From positions 26,448 through 90,447 of the forward strand of contig DATHNT010000013.1 of NCBI GenBank assembly GCA_035485715.1: a stretch of 64,000 nucleotides of DNA, in the 5' to 3' direction. Origin of the DNA: Solirubrobacteraceae bacterium (lineage in GTDB: Bacteria; Actinomycetota; Thermoleophilia; Solirubrobacterales; Solirubrobacteraceae). Every line of letters starts with the position of its first letter. Position 1 is the stretch's first letter. Positions 53,493 through 64,000 of the stretch are shown here, piece by piece. Position numbers and translations under genes: made by a program. Under the pieces are notes generated by a model. It worked only from the letters and a program-made list of their open reading frames with translations, ran no database searches and had not been told where the DNA came from.

Positions 53493-53575
53493 CACGCCCT
53501 TCAATCCCAAAAAATATGCAGCTAGGCACGCCCTCAAGCAAGCGTTGGCATACTCAGGCATTCGAGACTCAAATC

Positions 53576-55132
53576 GTGAACAGCGCCATCCTTGGCACCA
53601 CACTCGGCGGTCGCTACCGCCTCGACGAGCAGATCGGGCACGGCGGTATGAGCACCGTCTACCGCGCGTTCGACACCGTGCTCGAACGCGAGGTCGCGAT
53701 CAAGCTGATGCACCGCGAGATCGCATCGGACTCGGGACAGCTCGAGCGCTTTCGGCGCGAGGCGCGCGCCGTGGCGCAGCTCAACCATCCGCATATCGTG
53801 ACCGTGATCGACGCCGGCGAGTGGGATGTCGGCGAGGGCTCGGGTACCGCCGAGAGCGAGTCCAGCGGGACTCCGTACATCGTGCTCGAGCACGTCGCCG
53901 GCGAGACGCTCAAGGATCTGATCCGTCGCGACGCGCCGCTGGACGTGCCCACGGCGCTCGCCTACGGGATCGAGATAGCCCGCGCGCTCGGCGCCGCACA
54001 TCTGCAGGAGATCGTCCACCGCGACGTCAAGCCGCAGAACGTGCTGCTCGGCGGAGAGGGCGGCGCGAAGATCACCGACTTCGGCATCGCGCGCACGCTG
54101 ACGGAGGAAGGACTGACCATGGACGGACGCGTGCTCGGCACCACCGACTACGTCTCCCCGGAGCAGGCGCTCGGGCAGCCCGTCACCGGTCAATCGGACG
54201 TCTACTCGCTCGGCGTGGTCCTCTACGAGATGCTGACCGGCTCAGTCCCATACAAAGGCTCCTCGCCGGTTGCGGTGGCGATGATGCACGTGCGCGAGGA
54301 GGTTCCAGACGTGCAACTGGCACGTCCCGAGGTCTCGGCGGCAACCGCTGCTGTAGTCGAACGCGCCACCGCCAAGGATCTCGAGCGGCGCTATCCAGGC
54401 ATGGCGGCCATGATCGCCGACATGGAGGAGGCCCTGGCGATCGAGACGGCCCGCTCCGGGCAGACCACCGGCGAGGTCACCGCGGTCCTGCGCACCCTGC
54501 ATTCGCCAGCCAGGCGCCTGCTGCCGTGGCGCCTGCGCCACCCAGCACGCTGGGCGATCTCGCTGGCACTGCTCGCGGCGGTCGTCGCGCTCGTGCTCGT
54601 CGCACTGGCGGGCCACACGCACAGCGGCACTGGCGTGGCGCCGGACGTGCACTCGAGCGCCGGAGTCACGCCGGTCGTGCTCAAACAGGAAGCGGCCAGC
54701 TCATACAACCCGTTCGGTACTGGGCCAGAACACGCCGAAGACGTGGCAAGCGTCATCGACGGGGATCTCACGACCTCGTGGAGCACCGAGCACTACATCG
54801 AAGGCAACTTGGGCAAGCCAGGACTCGGCGTCTCGCTCGACGCAAGCCCGGGCGTGGCCGCACGAGCACTCGAGATCCAGACGCCCACCCCGGGCTTTCG
54901 CGCCGGCGTATACGGCGCAACCGGTCCGCCCACCTCCACCCCGTCCAGTAGCAGCGAGAGTCTGACTGCGCTCGGCTGGAAGCAGCTGGCGCCGGCACGC
55001 AAGATCGGCGCGCGCACGACGATCCCGATCAACCCGACACGACTGGTCTACCGCTACTACCTGGTCTGGATCGTCAGCTTGCCGGCGAGGAACGAAACCG
55101 CACAGATCTCGGAGATCACCTTGTTCAAGTAG
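53576..55132 (+). CDS. Ser/Thr protein kinase with TM and discoidin-like extracellular domain
   Basis: IGHGGMSTVY, VAIK, HRDVKPQN, DFGIA, YVSPEQ; TM; C-terminus VIDGDLTTSW...YRYYLVW. Confidence 0.92.
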   Translation: MNSAILGTTLGGRYRLDEQIGHGGMSTVYRAFDTVLEREVAIKLMHREIASDSGQLERFRREARAVAQLNHPHIVTVIDAGEWDVGEGSGTAESESSGTPYIVLEHVAGETLKDLIRRDAPLDVPTALAYGIEIARALGAAHLQEIVHRDVKPQNVLLGGEGGAKITDFGIARTLTEEGLTMDGRVLGTTDYVSPEQALGQPVTGQSDVYSLGVVLYEMLTGSVPYKGSSPVAVAMMHVREEVPDVQLARPEVSAATAAVVERATAKDLERRYPGMAAMIADMEEALAIETARSGQTTGEVTAVLRTLHSPARRLLPWRLRHPARWAISLALLAAVVALVLVALAGHTHSGTGVAPDVHSSAGVTPVVLKQEAASSYNPFGTGPEHAEDVASVIDGDLTTSWSTEHYIEGNLGKPGLGVSLDASPGVAARALEIQTPTPGFRAGVYGATGPPTSTPSSSSESLTALGWKQLAPARKIGARTTIPINPTRLVYRYYLVWIVSLPARNETAQISEITLFK

Positions 55133-55202: not shown

Positions 55203-57149
55203 TTACCCGTTCGCCGGCGGCGCGCCCGCAGCCGGCGCCGGTGCGGCAGGAGTGGTGGGGGTAGTTGTGGTGGTGGTAGAGGTCGAGGTGGTTTGCTGGG
55301 CGAGTACGCCAACGGCGATCGTCACTTCGCCGCCCTTGGACAGCTTGTGACCGGCCGCTGGGCTCTGCTGCACGACGGTCCCGACCTTGCTCTGTTCGGT
55401 GACCGTGCGCTGCACGGTATGCGAAGTGAGGTCGGCGGCAGTCAGCGTCGCCACCGCCTGCGCTTCGCTTTGGCCGACGAGCGAGGGCACTGTCGCTTGC
55501 TTGAGCGCCTGTGCCACCACGATCGTCACGGCTGAGCCGACCTTCAGGGAGGAGCCGGCCGATGGGGACTGCGATATTACGGTGCCCGCTGCCGGTTCGG
55601 CGACTTCGCGCTTGACCACCGTCTCTTTCAGCCCGGCGGCTGCCAGCGCCGCCGTCGCGGCAGCCTGCGATTCCCCTGTCACTTCCGGCACGCTGGCTTC
55701 CCGGGGGCCCGAGGACACGTATACCGTGACGGGGCTGCCGTGCTGCACCTCGATGCCGGCAGCAGGGTTGGTGGAGATCACCAGGCCCTTTTCGACGCTG
55801 CTGCTCGACTGGTTTTGGGCGGTCGGCTGAAAGCCCTTCTTGCGCAAGATCTTCAGCGCTTCGTCGCTCGTCTTGTGTATGACATCGGGCAACCCCAGAG
55901 TTTCCGGGCCCGAGGACACGTACACGCTTACGTGCGAACCCTTCGCGACGAGCGTTCCGTGTGGAGGTGTGGTGCCGACAACGAGCCCGTTTGCGACGTC
56001 CGCATTGGAGGTCAACGAGACCACGGGTGTCAACCCGGCCCGCTGCAGCGAGGTCACGGCAGCCGGCTGCGTCTCGCCCGTGACTTCCGGCACGCTCACG
56101 CGGTCCGTCTTCGATCCTGGCAGGAGTAGCAGCAACAGCACTGCCGCCACGATCGCAAACGCCGCCACGCCGGCGGCGATCCACCAGGCGCGCTTGCGTT
56201 TGCGCGCATCGTCCTCGGCCGAGTGCGTCTCCTCCGGCGGTAGCGGCGGCACCAACAGCGCGGCAGCCGCCGCGGTCTGCGTAGGCGGCGCCCCGTTGAA
56301 GGCGGGCGCCGGCGCCGGCGAGATGCCCTCGCGCGCCTGCTGCAGCGCGGCGATGAACTCATCCGCGCTCGCAAAGCGCGCCAAAGGATCCTTGGCCAGC
56401 GAGCGCATCACCACCGCGTCGAGCGCCGGCGTCACTTCGGGATTGCGCTGGCTCGGAGGGGTCGGTTCGGCCGAGACCTGCTTGAGCGCGATCGTCACGG
56501 CCGACTCGCCCTCGAAGGGCACGCTGCCGGTCAGCAACTCATAGAGGACGACGCCGACCGCGTACAGGTCGGAGGTCTCGCTGACCGCGTGGCCTTGGGC
56601 CTGCTCGGGTGAGAGGTACTGCGCCGTGCCCATGATCGAGCCGGTCAGCGTCATGTCCGAAGCCCCGGCGCGCGCGATCCCGAAGTCGGTGACCTTCGCA
56701 CGTCCCTCCTCGTCGAGGATCACGTTGTGGGGCTTGATGTCACGGTGGATGATCCCGCGGCGATGGGCAAACCGGACCGCCAACAGGATCTGCACGACGA
56801 TGTCGGTCGCATCCGACGGCGACAGCGGCCCATGCTCGCGCACGACGGCCTTCAGCGAGCGCCCCGGCAGGTACTCCATCGCGATGTAGTAGGTGCCGTC
56901 CCACTCGCCCCGGTCGAACACGGCGACGACGTTGGGATGCGAGAGACCGGCGGCGCTCGAGGCCTCGCGACGGAAGCGCTCGACGAACTCCTGATCCTCG
57001 GCGAAGCGATGGTGCAACAGCTTCAGCGCCACCTGCCTGCCGAGCAGCGTGTCGTGGGCGAGGTACACGTCAGCCATCCCGCCGGAGCCGAGCCTCGCGG
57101 AAACGCGATAGCGCCCGTCTATGACCGTGCCGGCCTCGATCGCGCTCAT
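55203..57149 (-). CDS. pknB: PknB/Stk1 Ser/Thr kinase with four PASTA domains
   Basis: LGSGGMADVY, VALK, HRDIKPHN, DFGIARAG, GTAQYLSPEQ; TM; four PASTA repeats. Confidence 0.95.
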   Translation of the reverse strand: MSAIEAGTVIDGRYRVSARLGSGGMADVYLAHDTLLGRQVALKLLHHRFAEDQEFVERFRREASSAAGLSHPNVVAVFDRGEWDGTYYIAMEYLPGRSLKAVVREHGPLSPSDATDIVVQILLAVRFAHRRGIIHRDIKPHNVILDEEGRAKVTDFGIARAGASDMTLTGSIMGTAQYLSPEQAQGHAVSETSDLYAVGVVLYELLTGSVPFEGESAVTIALKQVSAEPTPPSQRNPEVTPALDAVVMRSLAKDPLARFASADEFIAALQQAREGISPAPAPAFNGAPPTQTAAAAALLVPPLPPEETHSAEDDARKRKRAWWIAAGVAAFAIVAAVLLLLLLPGSKTDRVSVPEVTGETQPAAVTSLQRAGLTPVVSLTSNADVANGLVVGTTPPHGTLVAKGSHVSVYVSSGPETLGLPDVIHKTSDEALKILRKKGFQPTAQNQSSSSVEKGLVISTNPAAGIEVQHGSPVTVYVSSGPREASVPEVTGESQAAATAALAAAGLKETVVKREVAEPAAGTVISQSPSAGSSLKVGSAVTIVVAQALKQATVPSLVGQSEAQAVATLTAADLTSHTVQRTVTEQSKVGTVVQQSPAAGHKLSKGGEVTIAVGVLAQQTTSTSTTTTTTPTTPAAPAPAAGAPPANG

Positions 57150-58582
57150 TTGAGCAACGCTTCCATCACTTGCTTTGCGACGGGCGCGGCGAATGTGGCC
57201 CCTTGGCCCGGCACGCCCTTGAGCGTCACCGCGACGGCGACTGTCGGATTCTGCGCGGGCGCAAAAGCGATGAACCAAACGTTGTTGATCGCCGTGCCGA
57301 TCTGCGTTTCGGCGGTACCCGTCTTGCCGGCAACCCGCACCCCGGGAATCTGGGCACTGGTGCCGGTCGCGCCGGGACTGTAAACGACGGCTTCCATCAT
57401 TCCGGTGATAGACGCGGCGGTCGAGCGCTTCATCACCACCGACTGCACTTTGGGGGCGATGCGTTGCAGCACGTGCCCGTCCGGTTCTACGATCGAGGAG
57501 GTCAGGTGGGGGACCATCAGCTTGCCGTGATTGGCGACGGCTGCAGCCACCTCGGCCATCTGCAGCGGTGTCACCTCGAGCTTGTCCTGGCCGATACCCA
57601 TGCGACCCACATCGACGTATGTGCTGGTCGGCGCGATCAACCTTCCGTTCAGGTACTCGCCGCTGGCAGACATCTCCTTCGCCGGGTAATCGAGTTGCGG
57701 CTTGCGGTCGAAGCCGAAACGACGCATGTAGCGTGCCATCGTGGCCTTGCCGAGTCGCTCCGCCACCTGTGCGTAGACCGTGTTCACCGAATGGGCGAGA
57801 GCTTCGGTGAGCGTGATTTTACCGAAGCTCTCGTCGTTGTCGTTTTTCAGCGGAAAACCGGAGACGAGCAGTCCGTTGCGTCCGCTCAAAGTCGATTCCG
57901 GGGTGAACTGCCCTGTGTCGATCGCGGCGGTGGCGGTCACGACCTTGAACGTCGAACCCGGGGCGTAGCCATATTGGACGGCACGGTTCAAAAGCGGCGA
58001 GCCAGGCTCGCGCTCGATCTTCTCATAGCTGCGACGCGAAGCAGCCGCGTTCGCGTCATAGCTCGGCTTGGAAGCCATCACCTCGACCGCTCCGGTGCGC
58101 GGGTCGAGCGCCACGACGGCGCCTTCGTGTTCGCCGAGCGCGGCGATCGCCGTCTGCTGCGCTGAGGGCTGGAGTGTCGTGACGACCGTGTTGCCCTGCG
58201 GCTTGCGCCCTTGCAGCTGGTCGAGAATGCTCTGCACGCTGGTGCCGGTCTCGCCGTCGAGCGCGGCGTTGCGATACAGCTCCAAACCCACCTGCCCGCG
58301 TTCGATGAAGGAGTAGCCCACTGGCGCGGTGAACTCGCTCCCACGCGGATAGCTGCGTGAATAGGTGCCTTCGTCTCCACGCACACTATGAGCCAGCACC
58401 GTACCGTCAGCCGCCAGAATCGGGCCGCGGTCGATCCGCTCCTGCTGGAGCAGACCGCGCACATTCAGTTCGCTTGTACGCAACGAGGAGGCTTCGAAGA
58501 CGGTCCAGCGCGAGGTGAAGGCGATCAACACCGCGAACAGCACCACGACCAGCCCATACAAACGGACGATTGGACGGTTCAC
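57146..58582 (-). CDS. pbpA: Class B penicillin-binding protein (PbpA-type transpeptidase)
   Basis: N-terminal TM; STFK (SxxK), SVN, KTG motifs. Confidence 0.92.
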   Translation of the reverse strand: MNRPIVRLYGLVVVLFAVLIAFTSRWTVFEASSLRTSELNVRGLLQQERIDRGPILAADGTVLAHSVRGDEGTYSRSYPRGSEFTAPVGYSFIERGQVGLELYRNAALDGETGTSVQSILDQLQGRKPQGNTVVTTLQPSAQQTAIAALGEHEGAVVALDPRTGAVEVMASKPSYDANAAASRRSYEKIEREPGSPLLNRAVQYGYAPGSTFKVVTATAAIDTGQFTPESTLSGRNGLLVSGFPLKNDNDESFGKITLTEALAHSVNTVYAQVAERLGKATMARYMRRFGFDRKPQLDYPAKEMSASGEYLNGRLIAPTSTYVDVGRMGIGQDKLEVTPLQMAEVAAAVANHGKLMVPHLTSSIVEPDGHVLQRIAPKVQSVVMKRSTAASITGMMEAVVYSPGATGTSAQIPGVRVAGKTGTAETQIGTAINNVWFIAFAPAQNPTVAVAVTLKGVPGQGATFAAPVAKQVMEALLK

Positions 58583-58659
58583 GCGCGAGCACCCCCGTCC
58601 AAGCCTGTCCAAAGGCAGGCGGCGGGACCGGCGGCCGTCGGGGCGGTAAGCCGGCTCAT
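58579..58659 (-). pseudogene. 26-aa mini-ORF at the usual rodA position (possible deletion scar)
   Basis: ATG overlaps the pstP stop and its TGA overlaps the pbpA GTG; MSRLTAPTAAGPAACLWTGLDGGARA. No recognisable RodA motif. Confidence 0.35.
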
Positions 58660-59939
58660 CCTTCGCTCAACTGTCCCAGTTCGAGCTCACGCATCAGTTC
58701 GGCGGCGTCGCCTTCGGAGCGCAGCGAATGGTCGAGCAACGCCTGGCGACGAGCGGGCACGAGCGTCGAGGCGCTCACGCCCGAGACATAATCGCTCGTG
58801 TACAGCTTGATTTTGCCTGGGAGTTCGTAGGGCAGGCCGTTGTACATGGTCACCAGGCCGCGCTGATTGGTGCCGATGAAATAGACCGACTGCAACGCCA
58901 GGTACGCCGCAGCCGCCAGCAGACCAACGACGATCGACAGCACGACGAGTGTGCGCACGCGGCGAAGGCGTCTGCGCAACCGCGCACTTTTTGTGGGTTG
59001 GGAGGTCTGCTGCGGCCAGCGCGGGCGCCGCGGGGGCGCCGGCGCCTGGTTGCCGTTGAGACTCAGTGGCTGTTCGGCATACTCGTCATCGCGCACAGCC
59101 ACATCCGAGTCGGCCTGTGAAGTCGGGATGGAAGTTCGCTCCTGTGACGCCGAGGGGGCCGGCGGCACAGCCGCGACGGCGGTGATCGTGGTGTGCCCGT
59201 CGCCGGGCCGCTCGGCCTCGCTGAGCACCTCCTCCAAGCGCAGCAGCACGACGGTTATGTTGTCCTTGCCGCCTGCCCCGTTGGCAGCCGCGATCAGCGC
59301 CTCACCGGCGTCCGCCAAACGTTCGTGCAATGCGAGCAAGCGCAGCAGTTCGGCCTCACCGACCATTGTCGTCAGGCCGTCGCTACAGAGCAGATAGACG
59401 TCGCCCGGACGACCGCGGAAGGAGCGCACGTCCACCTCGACGCTCGCCTCCGGCCCGAGCGCGCGCGTGATCACCGATCGTTGCGGATGCTCCTCGGCTT
59501 CCTCGGGGGTCAACTTGCCCTGGCGGATCAGCTCGTCTACGAGCGAGTGGTCGTCTGTGAGGCGCAGCAGTTCGCCGTCGCGCATGCAGTACGCGCGCGA
59601 GTCGCCGACGTGGGCGATCGCGACATCCTGCTCGCCGACGTACACGGCCGTGATCGTGGTGCCCATACCGGCATGCTCGGCGTTGCTGTGCGAGAGCTCG
59701 TTGATGCGGGAGTTCGCCTGCTCGACCTGAGCCACGAGGCTACGCTCGGGATCCTCGCCGTCCTCCAGGCCCGCACGGAAGGTGTCGACCGCGACGCTCG
59801 AGGCGACCTCGCCGGCCTGCGCGCCGCCCATCCCGTCGGCGACGACGAACAGCGGCGAGCGTACGAGCAGCGAGTCCTCGTTGGCGCGGCGTTGCAGGCC
59901 AGTGTCGGTGCCAGACCAGTGTTCGGCCACACGCAGCAT
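58656..59939 (-). CDS. pstP: PP2C (Stp1/PstP) Ser/Thr phosphatase with TM and extracellular tail
   Basis: NEDS, VADGMGG, GMGTT, HVGDSRAY, TDDHS, LCSDGL, GGKDNIT. Confidence 0.95.
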   Translation of the reverse strand: MLRVAEHWSGTDTGLQRRANEDSLLVRSPLFVVADGMGGAQAGEVASSVAVDTFRAGLEDGEDPERSLVAQVEQANSRINELSHSNAEHAGMGTTITAVYVGEQDVAIAHVGDSRAYCMRDGELLRLTDDHSLVDELIRQGKLTPEEAEEHPQRSVITRALGPEASVEVDVRSFRGRPGDVYLLCSDGLTTMVGEAELLRLLALHERLADAGEALIAAANGAGGKDNITVVLLRLEEVLSEAERPGDGHTTITAVAAVPPAPSASQERTSIPTSQADSDVAVRDDEYAEQPLSLNGNQAPAPPRRPRWPQQTSQPTKSARLRRRLRRVRTLVVLSIVVGLLAAAAYLALQSVYFIGTNQRGLVTMYNGLPYELPGKIKLYTSDYVSGVSASTLVPARRQALLDHSLRSEGDAAELMRELELGQLSEG

Positions 59940-59953
59940 CAGTGGACCACCGG

Positions 59954-60472
59954 TCAGTCGACCTCGAAGACGAATTCGGAGTCGCCGATGCGCACGCGAT
60001 CGCCTGGGTGCAGGGGACGTGGGCCGTCGAGCAGCTCCTCGTTGAGGTAGGTGCCGTTGGTTGAGCCGAGATCCTCGATCACGAGGATCTTCCCTTGCTC
60101 GTATACGCGCGCATGGCGCGAGGAGGCGAACGGATCGCTCAAGCGTATCTCGGCAGTGTCGCCACGGCCGAAGACGACGTCGCCGCCAAGGTCATAGATC
60201 ATCCCCGGCTCGTGACCCGGAGCGCGCTCGACGACCAGGCGCGGTTCGCGGCCGAGCAGATCGGCCGGCCCGAGCGTCGAGGCCGAGTGCAGACCGGTCG
60301 CATCGGCGGGCACGGTTCCCGCCTGCACGGCGCCTCGGTCCAGGGCTGAGACCTGCGCCCCATTGCCGCGCAGGTCTCGCAGAGCGCTACGAGCCACCCA
60401 CAAAAGGAACAGGTACATGACAGCCAGGAAGCCGAACTTCAGCATCACCGACACAGGCGCGAGATTGTTCAT
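59954..60472 (-). CDS. fhaB: FHA domain protein with N-terminal TM (FhaB/FipA-like)
   Basis: LKFGFLAVMYLFL; FGR, ASSRHA, DLGSTNGT. Confidence 0.9.
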   Translation of the reverse strand: MNNLAPVSVMLKFGFLAVMYLFLLWVARSALRDLRGNGAQVSALDRGAVQAGTVPADATGLHSASTLGPADLLGREPRLVVERAPGHEPGMIYDLGGDVVFGRGDTAEIRLSDPFASSRHARVYEQGKILVIEDLGSTNGTYLNEELLDGPRPLHPGDRVRIGDSEFVFEVD

Positions 60473-61487: not shown

Positions 61488-63278
61488 CTAAACGGGGCCG
61501 CGCAACGCGCGCGCGCAGATCGCAAGCGCACAGCCAAGCACCGCCCCCAACAGCGCGCCGCGCGGACTTGGTTGGCTTGCGTGCGAGAGCAGCGCCCGTT
61601 CCAGCAACGGCACCGCTGCTAGCAATGCGATCGTCCAGACGATCGCCGCGCCCACGTCCAAAGCAGCGCTGCGGCCGCGCACAAGCCACGGCAGGATCGC
61701 GCTCGCGAGCGCCCACACCGCCGCGCCGAGCAGCAGCTCGACCGTGAACGTCGGCACGATCACGTGCGTGGCGGCGGCGTTGATCGAGCTCTCCCAGGCC
61801 GCTCTCGGCGGCAGCCCTACTGGGGGCCCAAGCCACAGCCTGCGCCTCAGCAGCGACTCCGCGAGCGCCAGCCACCAGAAGCCGAGCGCGGCCAGTCCGG
61901 CGCGCGCAAGCCAGTTCGAGCGTTGGCCGGCCAACGCCGGAAAAGCACCCGCCAAGCCGGCAAGCCCGAGTGCCGGCGCCAGTCCTGCGGCCAGCCAGCC
62001 GGGACCCGAGCGGCGTGGCAGCGCCAGCAGTGGAGCGCCGGCGGCAAGCACCAACAGAGATACCCCGGGTAGACCGGCGAAGGCCTGCCAGGCGGCGAGC
62101 GTCAGTAGACAGCCGAGCCACAGCAGTCTTGGCAACGCCACTGTCCGGCTCGTACGAGCGCGGCCCTCCTGCTCGTCGAACTCGTCATCCAGATCGCGGA
62201 GATCGCCATCGCGAGCGGCACGGCGGGGGTCGGCAGCGTGCGTAAGTGCAGCGGCCGGCCAGGTGCGATCCAGGTTGACGCGGGGCCGAAAAGCGGTGCG
62301 CTCCTCCTGAGCATCCTCCTGCAGCGCCATTGAGTCAGCCCGGCGACGCGAACCACGACGAGCAAAGAGTCGTTGCCTCAGCCCCCGCTCCAGCGTGCGC
62401 TCGAGGACGTCGTGCAGTTCGCTGAGCGTGCCGCGCCGCTCGGGCTGAGCGAGCAGCGCCCGGTCGAGAGCGCGGGTGAGCTCGGGCGGGAGGTCGCGGC
62501 GGCGACGCTCCAGCGGCTCCACCGGGGCGCCAATGCGCCTTGCGGTGGCGGCGGGCGTGCGACCGCGCACAGGGTTGACACCACTCAAGGCCTCATACAG
62601 AACAAGCGCCAGCGAGTACAGATCGGCCGCGGGACCGGCCTCGTGGCCCTCACTCTGCTCGGGGGACATGTAAGCAAGCGTGCCGAGCACATCCCCGGTG
62701 CGCGTCAACGCGTCGTCTCCGGCCAGCCTGGCTCCGCCGAAGTCCGCGAGCTTTGCCAGCGGCGGGGCCACGCCGCGAGTCGGCGTGTGCTCTGCGGCGT
62801 CGCTCGGCACGAGCACGTTTTGGGGCTTGACGTCGCGGTGGATCACGCCGCGCGCGTGCGCGTGCTCCAGCGCGCTAAGCAACGCCACGCCGATCTCGAG
62901 CACCTCCTCGTCTGCGAGCTGATCCTCGGAGATCAGCTCAGCCAGCGTCGCCCCGTCGATCAGCTCCGAGATCAGGTAGAAGGCATCCGCGTCCGAGCTG
63001 GCCTCGTACAGCGCCACGATCGCCGGGTGCGCGAGTCTGGCCGTGGCGTGCGCCTCGCGCGTTGCCCGCTCACGGTCCTCCTCGGAGGGCAGCGGAATGC
63101 GCTTGACCGCCACGGCGCGATCGAGCTGCTCGTCGTGCGCGCGCCACACGGTGCCGAAGCCTCCAGCACCGAGCCGCTCCTGCAACAGGTAGCGCCCGAG
63201 CAGCAGCTCGCCCCGGCGGGTGGAGCGCTCGTCAGAGATGCGGATCTGGCCCTGGACAAGGGTTTTGGAGGAATCCAC
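61488..63278 (-). CDS. Ser/Thr protein kinase with polytopic membrane C-terminus
   Basis: LGAGGFGTVW, VAVK, HRDVKPQN, DFG, YMSPEQ; about six hydrophobic segments at the C-terminus. GGAGG RBS before GTG 63278. Confidence 0.88.
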   Translation of the reverse strand: MDSSKTLVQGQIRISDERSTRRGELLLGRYLLQERLGAGGFGTVWRAHDEQLDRAVAVKRIPLPSEEDRERATREAHATARLAHPAIVALYEASSDADAFYLISELIDGATLAELISEDQLADEEVLEIGVALLSALEHAHARGVIHRDVKPQNVLVPSDAAEHTPTRGVAPPLAKLADFGGARLAGDDALTRTGDVLGTLAYMSPEQSEGHEAGPAADLYSLALVLYEALSGVNPVRGRTPAATARRIGAPVEPLERRRRDLPPELTRALDRALLAQPERRGTLSELHDVLERTLERGLRQRLFARRGSRRRADSMALQEDAQEERTAFRPRVNLDRTWPAAALTHAADPRRAARDGDLRDLDDEFDEQEGRARTSRTVALPRLLWLGCLLTLAAWQAFAGLPGVSLLVLAAGAPLLALPRRSGPGWLAAGLAPALGLAGLAGAFPALAGQRSNWLARAGLAALGFWWLALAESLLRRRLWLGPPVGLPPRAAWESSINAAATHVIVPTFTVELLLGAAVWALASAILPWLVRGRSAALDVGAAIVWTIALLAAVPLLERALLSHASQPSPRGALLGAVLGCALAICARALRGPV

Positions 63279-63420
63279 CGCCTCCGCGTTCGCCGCGCCC
63301 AGCCCCTTACCTGCCGCAAGATCGTGCGATCCGTTACTGACTGAGAAGTTGCAGCAAACATTCCGGCTGACGGTGGGGTCATACTGATGTGCTTCACAAG
63401 CCCCTGCAAGGAGCACTCTT

Positions 63421-64000
63421 TTGTCGTTCTTCGACGACGAGGACGAGGAGCCGCCGACCACAGTCCGGCCGGCGCCCACTCAACAACAGTCGCGACCACA
63501 GCCGCGCCGTCCCCAACGGGGAGGGGGAGGAACGGGCCCTGGAGCTGGCGCATCCTCGATCGACCATCACGCGATGATGGTGCGCCGGCGCATTGCGGCC
63601 GGCGTCGGGGTGGTGCTGTTGATCGCGATCGTGCTGCTTGTCAACGGCTGTTTGAAGCGGGGTAAACAGCAGGCGCTCGAAAGCTACAACCAGAACGTCA
63701 ACCAGATCGCGGCGCAGTCCGAATCGCAGGTTGCGAAGCCCTTGTTCACGACGCTCTCCTCCGCCAGCGGCAAGCAGGCGCTCGACGTGGAGACGCAGAT
63801 CGACCAGTTGCGCCGCCAGTCCGAAGAAATCGCCGAACATGCCAAAGGGCTGAGCTTGCCGAGTGAGATGACCTCGGCGCAACGCAACCTGCTGCTCGCA
63901 CTCAACCTGCGCGTAGAAGGACTCACAAAGATCGCCGGACTCGTGCGCGAAGCGCTCGGCGGCAAAGCCCAGCAGGCCAGCACCTATATCGCGGGGGCAA
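63421..64000 (+). CDS. Hypothetical membrane-anchored protein (partial, runs off window end)
   Basis: Read by hand from TTG 63421 after AAGGAG: MSFFDDEDEEPP...VRRRIAAGVGVVLLIAIVLLVNGC..., then helical; open to the edge. Confidence 0.8.
   Translation, partial: MSFFDDEDEEPPTTVRPAPTQQQSRPQPRRPQRGGGGTGPGAGASSIDHHAMMVRRRIAAGVGVVLLIAIVLLVNGCLKRGKQQALESYNQNVNQIAAQSESQVAKPLFTTLSSASGKQALDVETQIDQLRRQSEEIAEHAKGLSLPSEMTSAQRNLLLALNLRVEGLTKIAGLVREALGGKAQQASTYIAGA

Follow-up and report, generated by a model that had tools for sequence, protein, structure and literature searches.

The window analyzed here is a 64,000-nucleotide (nt) stretch of DNA from a Solirubrobacteraceae bacterium (GenBank assembly GCA_035485715.1, contig DATHNT010000013.1, positions 26,448 to 90,447 of the forward strand), and the feature of interest is the short spacer that separates pstP from pbpA in a cluster of cell wall synthesis and signalling genes. 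The source is a metagenome-assembled genome (MAG) of 3.1 Mb in 29 contigs with a completeness of 93.6%, labelled G000. FHA proteins, a PP2C phosphatase, a class B penicillin-binding protein (PBP), and a PASTA kinase were identified by their Pfam domains, and their genes are co-oriented in the order of the actinobacterial pstP-rodA-pbpA-pknB cluster (Table 1). The genes are chained via ATGA overlaps or short gaps: the fhaA stop and the fhaB ATG share a 4-nt overlap (ATGA), a gap of 14 nt (59940-59953) separates fhaB from pstP, and the pbpA stop overlaps the pknB ATG (ATGA, 57146-57149), which leaves no room for pknA before pknB. The start of fhaA was placed at MNPLRTLENMIAGLVEG. The PstP protein ends in LELGQLSEG, a motif kept in all relatives, and the 3′ end of its gene reads GAA GGA TGA, with the TGA at 58658-58656. 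The PbpA protein begins with VNRPIVRLYGL, its MNRPI N terminus is conserved family-wide, and its active-site motifs are all present (STFK at residue 210, SVN at 265, and KTG at 420), in agreement with the initial annotation, which had described it as an intact class B PBP. A profile search with PF01098 found no SEDS gene in the cluster, with matches on contigs C22 and C3 only. Two more Ser/Thr kinase genes flank the cluster (61488-63479 and 53516-55132), and there is no pknA.

Table 1. Genes and sequence features of the pstP-pbpA-pknB cluster (window coordinates)
Feature	Position	Strand	Description
fhaA	60469..61365	-	298 aa from ATG 61365; Pfam FhaA_N 4.6e-30, FHA 1e-21
fhaB	59954..60472	-	172 aa; Pfam FHA 5.5e-18
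pstP, PP2C Ser/Thr phosphatase	58656..59939	-	427 aa; Pfam PP2C_2 5.9e-16
26-codon relay (bridging) open reading frame, MSRLTAPTAAGPAACLWTGLDGGARA	58579..58659	-	docks on pstP (ATGA) and pbpA (GTGA)
73-nt intercistronic spacer pstP-pbpA	58583..58655	-	single copy
G-run GGGGG	58592..58596	-	9 nt 5′ of the pbpA GTG; putative weak Shine-Dalgarno sequence
pbpA, class B PBP	57146..58582	-	478 aa from GTG 58582; Pfam Transpeptidase 3.3e-70, PBP_dimer_2 1.5e-15
pknB, PASTA kinase	55203..57149	-	Pfam Pkinase 2.2e-52 and four PASTA domains

The 73-bp gap between pstP and pbpA is spanned by an open reading frame (ORF) of 26 codons that docks on both neighbors, exactly as the initial annotation had described. 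Its ATG (58659-58657) overlaps the pstP TGA within ATGA (58659-58656), and its TGA (58581-58579) lies inside the GTGA (58582-58579) that also holds the pbpA start codon (58582-58580). Misassembly of the junction is unlikely because five independent MAG assemblies share it with a homologous spacer. The spacer is open in all three frames. The ORF frame stays open in 81% of shuffled spacers and a third of all lengths fit, so that the chance of such a bridge in a single genome is approximately 0.27. The bridging frame in one genome is thus not beyond chance, and it becomes significant only via comparison with relatives.

Little else was detected in the spacer. No second copy of it was found in G000 or in any of the five relatives examined, no promoter or terminator consensus was found in it, and a scan of metagenome contigs with a 17-mer from its start returned chance matches only, none related to the locus. 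No Rfam family was recognized in the spacer; the best candidate (che1) was a chance match well under threshold (22.9 bits against a cutoff of 54.1). The spacer RNA folds no better than shuffled sequences (z = +0.69). Its minimum-energy fold pairs UUGGACGG (58605-58612) with CCGUCCAA (58569-58576, pbpA codons 3 to 5) in a hairpin that encloses the G-run and the GUG. Relatives preserve this pairing only in part: L058 and L059 have GGACGG/CCGTCC, and in L062 it is lost.

In five other families of the order, all 16 genomes compared have a SEDS gene adjoining pbpA, and the order pstP-rodA-pbpA is kept in 18 loci from 16 other genera of the same family. These counts bear out the statement of the initial annotation that the site between pstP and pbpA is normally occupied by a SEDS gene, and rodA is indeed absent from the cluster here. 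A loss of rodA is contradicted by the rest of the genome. The PF01098 search of the contigs identified three genes for SEDS proteins, predicted glycosyltransferases, in G000. The first is ftsW, located in the dcw region (C22 at 91.7 kb) approximately 4 kb from an FtsI-like PBP gene, while the second (C22 at 68 kb) immediately follows its own class B PBP gene and lies approximately 4 kb from mreB (C22:73273). The third (C3, approximately 442490-443845; 451 aa from a TTG) is intact, matching PF01098 over its full length (203 bits, 1.2e-59) with no stops, and it keeps the N-terminal RNRELL motif of the in-cluster copies. Its neighbors are a divergent LytR-CpsA-Psr (LCP) gene and, downstream, a gene with an EAL domain. 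When 22 SEDS proteins of nine genomes were placed in a maximum likelihood tree, three orthogroups were resolved. The C3 gene and its same-genus counterparts group with strong support (100/100) with the SEDS genes that immediately precede pbpA in four other families, and apart from both ftsW and the SEDS gene near mreB. The cluster rodA has its orthologue in the C3 gene; it has moved and has not been lost. Re-partnering of PbpA with another SEDS protein or a changed cell shape, the consequences that the initial annotation had suggested, need not be invoked, since the rodA orthologue is intact elsewhere.

The altered arrangement is shared by many relatives. The rodA gene lies away from the cluster in genomes of eight genera (g1, g14, g20, g22, g24, g31, g46, and g57), adjoining an LCP gene in all of these loci but one, and pstP abuts pbpA in 12 genomes of these genera. 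Among the best 80 Solirubrobacteraceae loci, pstP adjoins pbpA without rodA in all 80, and the same holds for 19 same-genus loci. Together with seven further genera, these loci show that the absence of rodA from this site is old and shared. In total, rodA is missing from the pstP-pbpA site in at least eight genera and approximately 110 genomes, most of which have gaps of -8 to +19 nt. In a family-wide rodA tree, built without the locus L142 (which contains an internal TGA), the moved copies form a single clade (100/98.9), and one change on the tree suffices. A single event, in the common ancestor of at least eight genera, moved rodA out of the pstP-rodA-pbpA operon. In the genera that keep rodA in place, the pstP/rodA and rodA/pbpA junctions are nearly always 4-nt xTGA overlaps, and therefore excision between the two TGAs would regenerate a pstP/pbpA overlap. 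The parsimony root of the genus has a pstP-pbpA gap of -4 or +10. These junctions suggest that the original excision was probably clean and scarless and left pstP overlapping or abutting pbpA. A clean deletion that preserved coupling, as the initial annotation had envisaged, would accordingly fit the ancestral event, but the identification of the 26-codon ORF as its scar fails.

The spacer itself has a separate and more recent history. In a tree of PbpA from 96 distinct loci (a quick single-gene tree), homologous spacers of 70 to 244 nt are limited to one subclade of 11 members (support, 99%), whose PbpA proteins are 91 to 95% identical to that of the window. In L064, the sister lineage, the spacer is 7 nt long (ATGAGCGCCGCGTGA) and forms a mini-ORF of four codons (M-S-A-A-stop); the gap is 7 or -4 nt in the next outgroups. 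The flanks of the window spacer (ATGAGC...CGCGTGA) are the same as those in the 7-nt spacer. The 73-nt spacer is a 66-nt, 22-codon in-frame expansion of the 7-nt spacer, and it is much younger than the relocation of rodA.

Within the subclade the spacer has continued to change, and each change in length preserves either a direct overlap or a frame that connects the stop of pstP with the start of pbpA. Eight close relatives have homologous open frames, 25 to 83 codons long, so that the frame is retained in nine genomes. Relative to the window spacer, that of L055 is 3 nt shorter, that of L060 (OY969921.1) is 60 nt longer (133 nt, with a relay ORF of 46 codons), and those of L056 and L057 are longer by 3 nt plus an insert of 168 nt. 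In L061 and L063 the spacer has vanished exactly (-77 nt), restoring the ATGA overlap. The expansion in L060 consists of three 18-nt tandem units (ATGGACAGGCTCGGACGT-like), each with an ATG in frame with pbpA. Inverted ends (GAACGTGTCTCAAAACCTGCGG...CCGCAGGTTCTGCGACACGTTC) bound the 168-nt insert, which is present in approximately 15 full or partial copies each in L056 and L057, and in three full copies in G000 (C21:41346-41511, C14:337916-338080, and C27:47865-48038). It is a miniature inverted-repeat transposable element (MITE), and its insertion into the relay ORF left a frame of 83 codons open. The multicopy status applies only to this insert and not to the spacer itself.

The same length rule is seen more widely, with positive pstP-pbpA gaps almost always of the class 3n+1 in approximately 110 genomes. 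Across the 96 loci, these gaps include 16 distinct values of the class 3n+1 (1, 4, 7, 10, 13, 16, 19, 31, 40, 52, 64, 70, 73, 115, 133, and 244 nt), four of the class 3n, and none of the class 3n+2. Gaps in other genera (4, 10, 13, 16, and 28 nt) are all 3n+1 as well, with 28 nt as a seventeenth value. The class 3n+1 is that in which a frame from a start overlapping the pstP stop closes on the TGA in the xTGAAC of pbpA, and 58 of the 59 3n+1 spacers (1 to 244 nt) remain open over the whole distance between the two xTGA motifs, with ATG, GTG, or TTG as the start. By unordered parsimony on the quick single-gene PbpA tree, 11 of the 13 inferred gap-to-gap changes are multiples of 3. Spacers of 49 and 52 nt between rodA and pbpA in two other genera are bridged likewise. 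Among long spacers that arose independently (pstP-pbpA 28, 31, 40, 52, 64, 73, and 115 nt; rodA-pbpA 49 and 52 nt), 9 of 10 are bridged, which at a per-case chance of approximately 0.27 corresponds to an estimated P value of approximately 6e-5.

Two other junctions of the operon provide a comparison. Among relatives, 20 of 23 positive pbpA-pknB spacers (12 to 279 nt) carry a docking ORF of up to 95 codons, which runs from an ATG within cATGnnTGA (an 8-nt overlap with pbpA) to the TGA of the pknB ATGA. Lengths at this junction are locked to 3n, and 12 of 14 changes are multiples of 3; by these patterns, pbpA-pknB is a second putative frame-locked relay junction of the same operon. Relatives with pbpA-pknB spacers include L055, L057-L063, L065, L067, L076, L077, L079, L082, L083, L085, L087, L089, L094, and L103. 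The fhaB-pstP junction serves as the control, being not bridgeable (stop context CTGA, start ATGC). Across L054-L133 its spacers vary between -1 and 114 nt, and their changes split 6/14/8 by length modulo 3, as expected for unconstrained DNA with no frame preference. Insertions in the spacers of this operon seem to be frequent in the clade.

Substitution patterns in the spacer were compared with those in pbpA. Divergence of the spacer is 0.10 to 0.33 per site, compared with 0.23 to 0.42 at four-fold sites of pbpA and 0.02 to 0.07 at first and second codon positions of pbpA, so that the spacer evolves at 40 to 80% of the four-fold-site rate. The ratio of nonsynonymous to synonymous differences (pN/pS) in the ORF frame is 1.27, and with nine sequences no frame of the spacer has a synonymous excess. 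Neither the peptide nor the RNA appears to be the selected object.

Collectively, these results are best explained by a relocation of rodA, a younger spacer, and a relay ORF that would keep termination-reinitiation coupling intact, and we regard this combined reading as probable. Ribosomes that terminate at the pstP UGA would restart on the overlapping AUG, translate the 26 codons as far as the UGA within GUGA, terminate there, and begin again on pbpA. In this way the ORF would carry termination-reinitiation coupling over a gap that otherwise would abolish it, or would at least ensure that the spacer is translated, while the relay peptide itself would be without function and spacers that break the relay would be removed by selection. 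Translation of the 26-codon ORF is predicted here from its frame and docking; the sequence prerequisites of termination-reinitiation coupling are present at pstP-pbpA, and pbpA may depend on it. Published measurements indicate that reinitiation coupling drops to almost nothing at gaps of approximately 20 nt (PMC10666635), and bringing a ribosome to the next gene may be the sole purpose of some short ORFs (reviewed in PMC12548453). The docking at both ends is what had led the initial annotation to propose translational coupling, an idea that we retain in the form of a relay ORF and not in that of a rodA scar.

We further propose, with a slight preference over the contrary view, that the coupled pstP-pbpA-pknB junctions of the Solirubrobacteraceae are under a general frame-lock, in which nonrepetitive relay ORFs of 2 to 95 codons arise repeatedly and independently. 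It follows from this proposal, and is put forward with equally limited confidence, that a spacer growing de novo, by tandem repeats, or by a MITE would persist only if its ORF docks on both neighbors.

Several observations weigh against the relay interpretation. Four spacers break the length rule (3, 6, 9, and 60 nt). The event counts are weakened by some implausible parsimony reconstructions, such as 73 to -4 to 244. A bridging frame in a single genome has the appreciable chance given above, and pbpA could be initiated independently from the G-run that lies 9 nt before its GTG. With five sequences, a synonymous excess was found in the pbpA frame of the spacer (P = 0.01), the frame in which an extended PbpA would be read; with nine sequences it vanished (18/50 versus 15.5 expected, P = 0.27).

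The main rival explanation is that the spacer is an untranslated intergenic insertion, that pbpA is initiated from the G-rich Shine-Dalgarno-like run, and that the open frame is incidental in GC-rich DNA. The openness of all three frames together with the single-genome chance, the G-run (GGAGG at its counterpart in L060) upstream of the GTG, and the near-neutral evolution of the sequence are all in keeping with it. However, it leaves unexplained the 3n+1 lock at pstP-pbpA and the 3n lock at pbpA-pknB in the absence of any lock at fhaB-pstP, and also the fact that the frame remained open after both the 168-nt MITE and the 60-nt tandem expansion. We consider this explanation unlikely.

A second possibility, that the spacer is an N-terminal extension of PbpA translated from a TTG at 58612 (MDRLGRGCSR-VNRP...) or from further upstream, is improbable. 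The pbpA frame is indeed open across the spacer, the ORF listing extends pbpA to this TTG, L060 has an ATG at the matching codon, and the five-sequence excess of synonymous changes lay in this frame. That excess, however, had lain upstream of the TTG, where the pbpA frame contains no start codon, and was gone with nine sequences. Moreover, the TTG is replaced by CTG in L059 and L062 and by CCG in L055, and the conserved MNRPI N terminus indicates the downstream start.

It is more doubtful still that the ORF encodes a functional microprotein of 26 residues. An open frame retained in nine genomes would be expected of such a gene, but the pN/pS of 1.27 would not, and, in genomes with PbpA proteins that are 94% identical, 7 of 23 peptide positions differ. 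It also tolerates a MITE insert of 57 codons and a repeat of 20 codons, has been wholly deleted in two close relatives, and is unrelated to the bridging peptides of other lineages. Least credible of all, and refuted on two of the grounds that the initial annotation had itself named (absence of rodA from this site in relatives and no likeness of the ORF to rodA ends), is a recent clean internal deletion of rodA that fused its first and last codons into the 26-codon ORF, since, for all that the ORF docks on both genes and rodA occupies this site in other genera, the gene is missing here from at least eight genera with mostly very short gaps, the spacer derives from a 7-nt state within a young subclade, the peptide aligns no better than shuffled sequences to eight rodA orthologues (with the best alignments in the gene interiors and not at the ends that a scar would resemble), no nucleotide match exists between the spacer and the genome's own rodA, and an intact rodA orthologue is present elsewhere in the genome.

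The relay ORF has likenesses to several known systems. Mycobacterial interspersed repetitive units (MIRUs), such as that of senX3-regX3 (Supply et al. 1997, as summarized in PMC12548453), insert at start codons and carry an internal ORF that docks at -4 on the downstream gene (PMC12548453). As in the window, the summarized MIRU case is a same-orientation intercistronic segment whose small ORF is docked by 4 nt on the downstream start, and insertion is described there as barely disturbing expression, thanks to the docked ORF. A further likeness, as far as that summary goes, is a length that varies in frame-keeping units, with which the 18-nt tandem units of L060 may be compared. In contrast, the window spacer is single copy and not a dispersed repeat, and its host belongs to a different class, Thermoleophilia. 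Furthermore, one frame rule holds here for unrelated spacers, for a MITE, and for tandem repeats, which suggests that selection acts on the junction rather than that the rule is a property of a single element.

The 4-nt overlaps at both ends of the ORF are the same as those of ATGA/TGATG termination-reinitiation coupling (Huber et al. 2019, PMC6728339; 2023, PMC10666635). The arrangement differs from those systems in placing two overlaps in series through an ORF that would be nonfunctional, and such a relay ORF is not among the published experiments. Delivery of ribosomes from upstream ORFs (uORFs) via NUGA overlaps in Mycobacterium tuberculosis (bioRxiv 10.1101/2022.06.01.494293; PMC12548453) is likewise reported to involve a short ORF that hands the ribosome on by a 4-nt overlap. 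That uORF is part of a 5′ leader and is initiated on its own, whereas the ORF of the window is flanked by two long genes and would receive its ribosomes through reinitiation.

The operon offers a natural experiment on coupling, in which two junctions appear locked over spacers of 1 to 279 nt while a third, unbridgeable junction drifts freely. The locked junctions lend support to the concept of short ORFs that serve only to hand ribosomes on (PMC12548453). If the frame-lock is real, the coupling of wall synthesis and signalling genes would itself be under strong selection, and MIRU-like behavior would belong to the junction and not to a particular mobile element. The frame rule also suggests a way for annotators to spot relay ORFs and so avoid calling them hypothetical proteins or scars.

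The cluster shares with the actinobacterial pstP operon the order of fhaA, fhaB, pstP, pbpA, and the PASTA kinase gene, their common strand, and their tight chaining. It differs in that rodA is unlinked, beside an LCP gene, in at least eight genera of Solirubrobacteraceae, and in the absence of pknA. Linkage of pstP, rodA, pbpA, and the PASTA kinase gene has been stated to be conserved throughout Actinobacteria (PMC6554272), and the clade without a cluster rodA is an exception to it. In this clade of soil Thermoleophilia, the putative third pair of SEDS protein and class B PBP is simply unlinked, and no polymerase has been lost. The surroundings of the relocated gene in G000 (C3:434000-452000, locus L034) include an RNase H-like gene, a sigma-70 factor gene, and a tyrosine recombinase gene (Phage_integrase family) 2 to 6 kb upstream. 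In four genomes of another family (f3; G026, G031, G035, and G039), the SEDS match of the pbpA-adjacent rodA is split in two frames (e.g., G031:C1:79781-80521 and 80510-80989), which suggests a frameshifted or recoded rodA.

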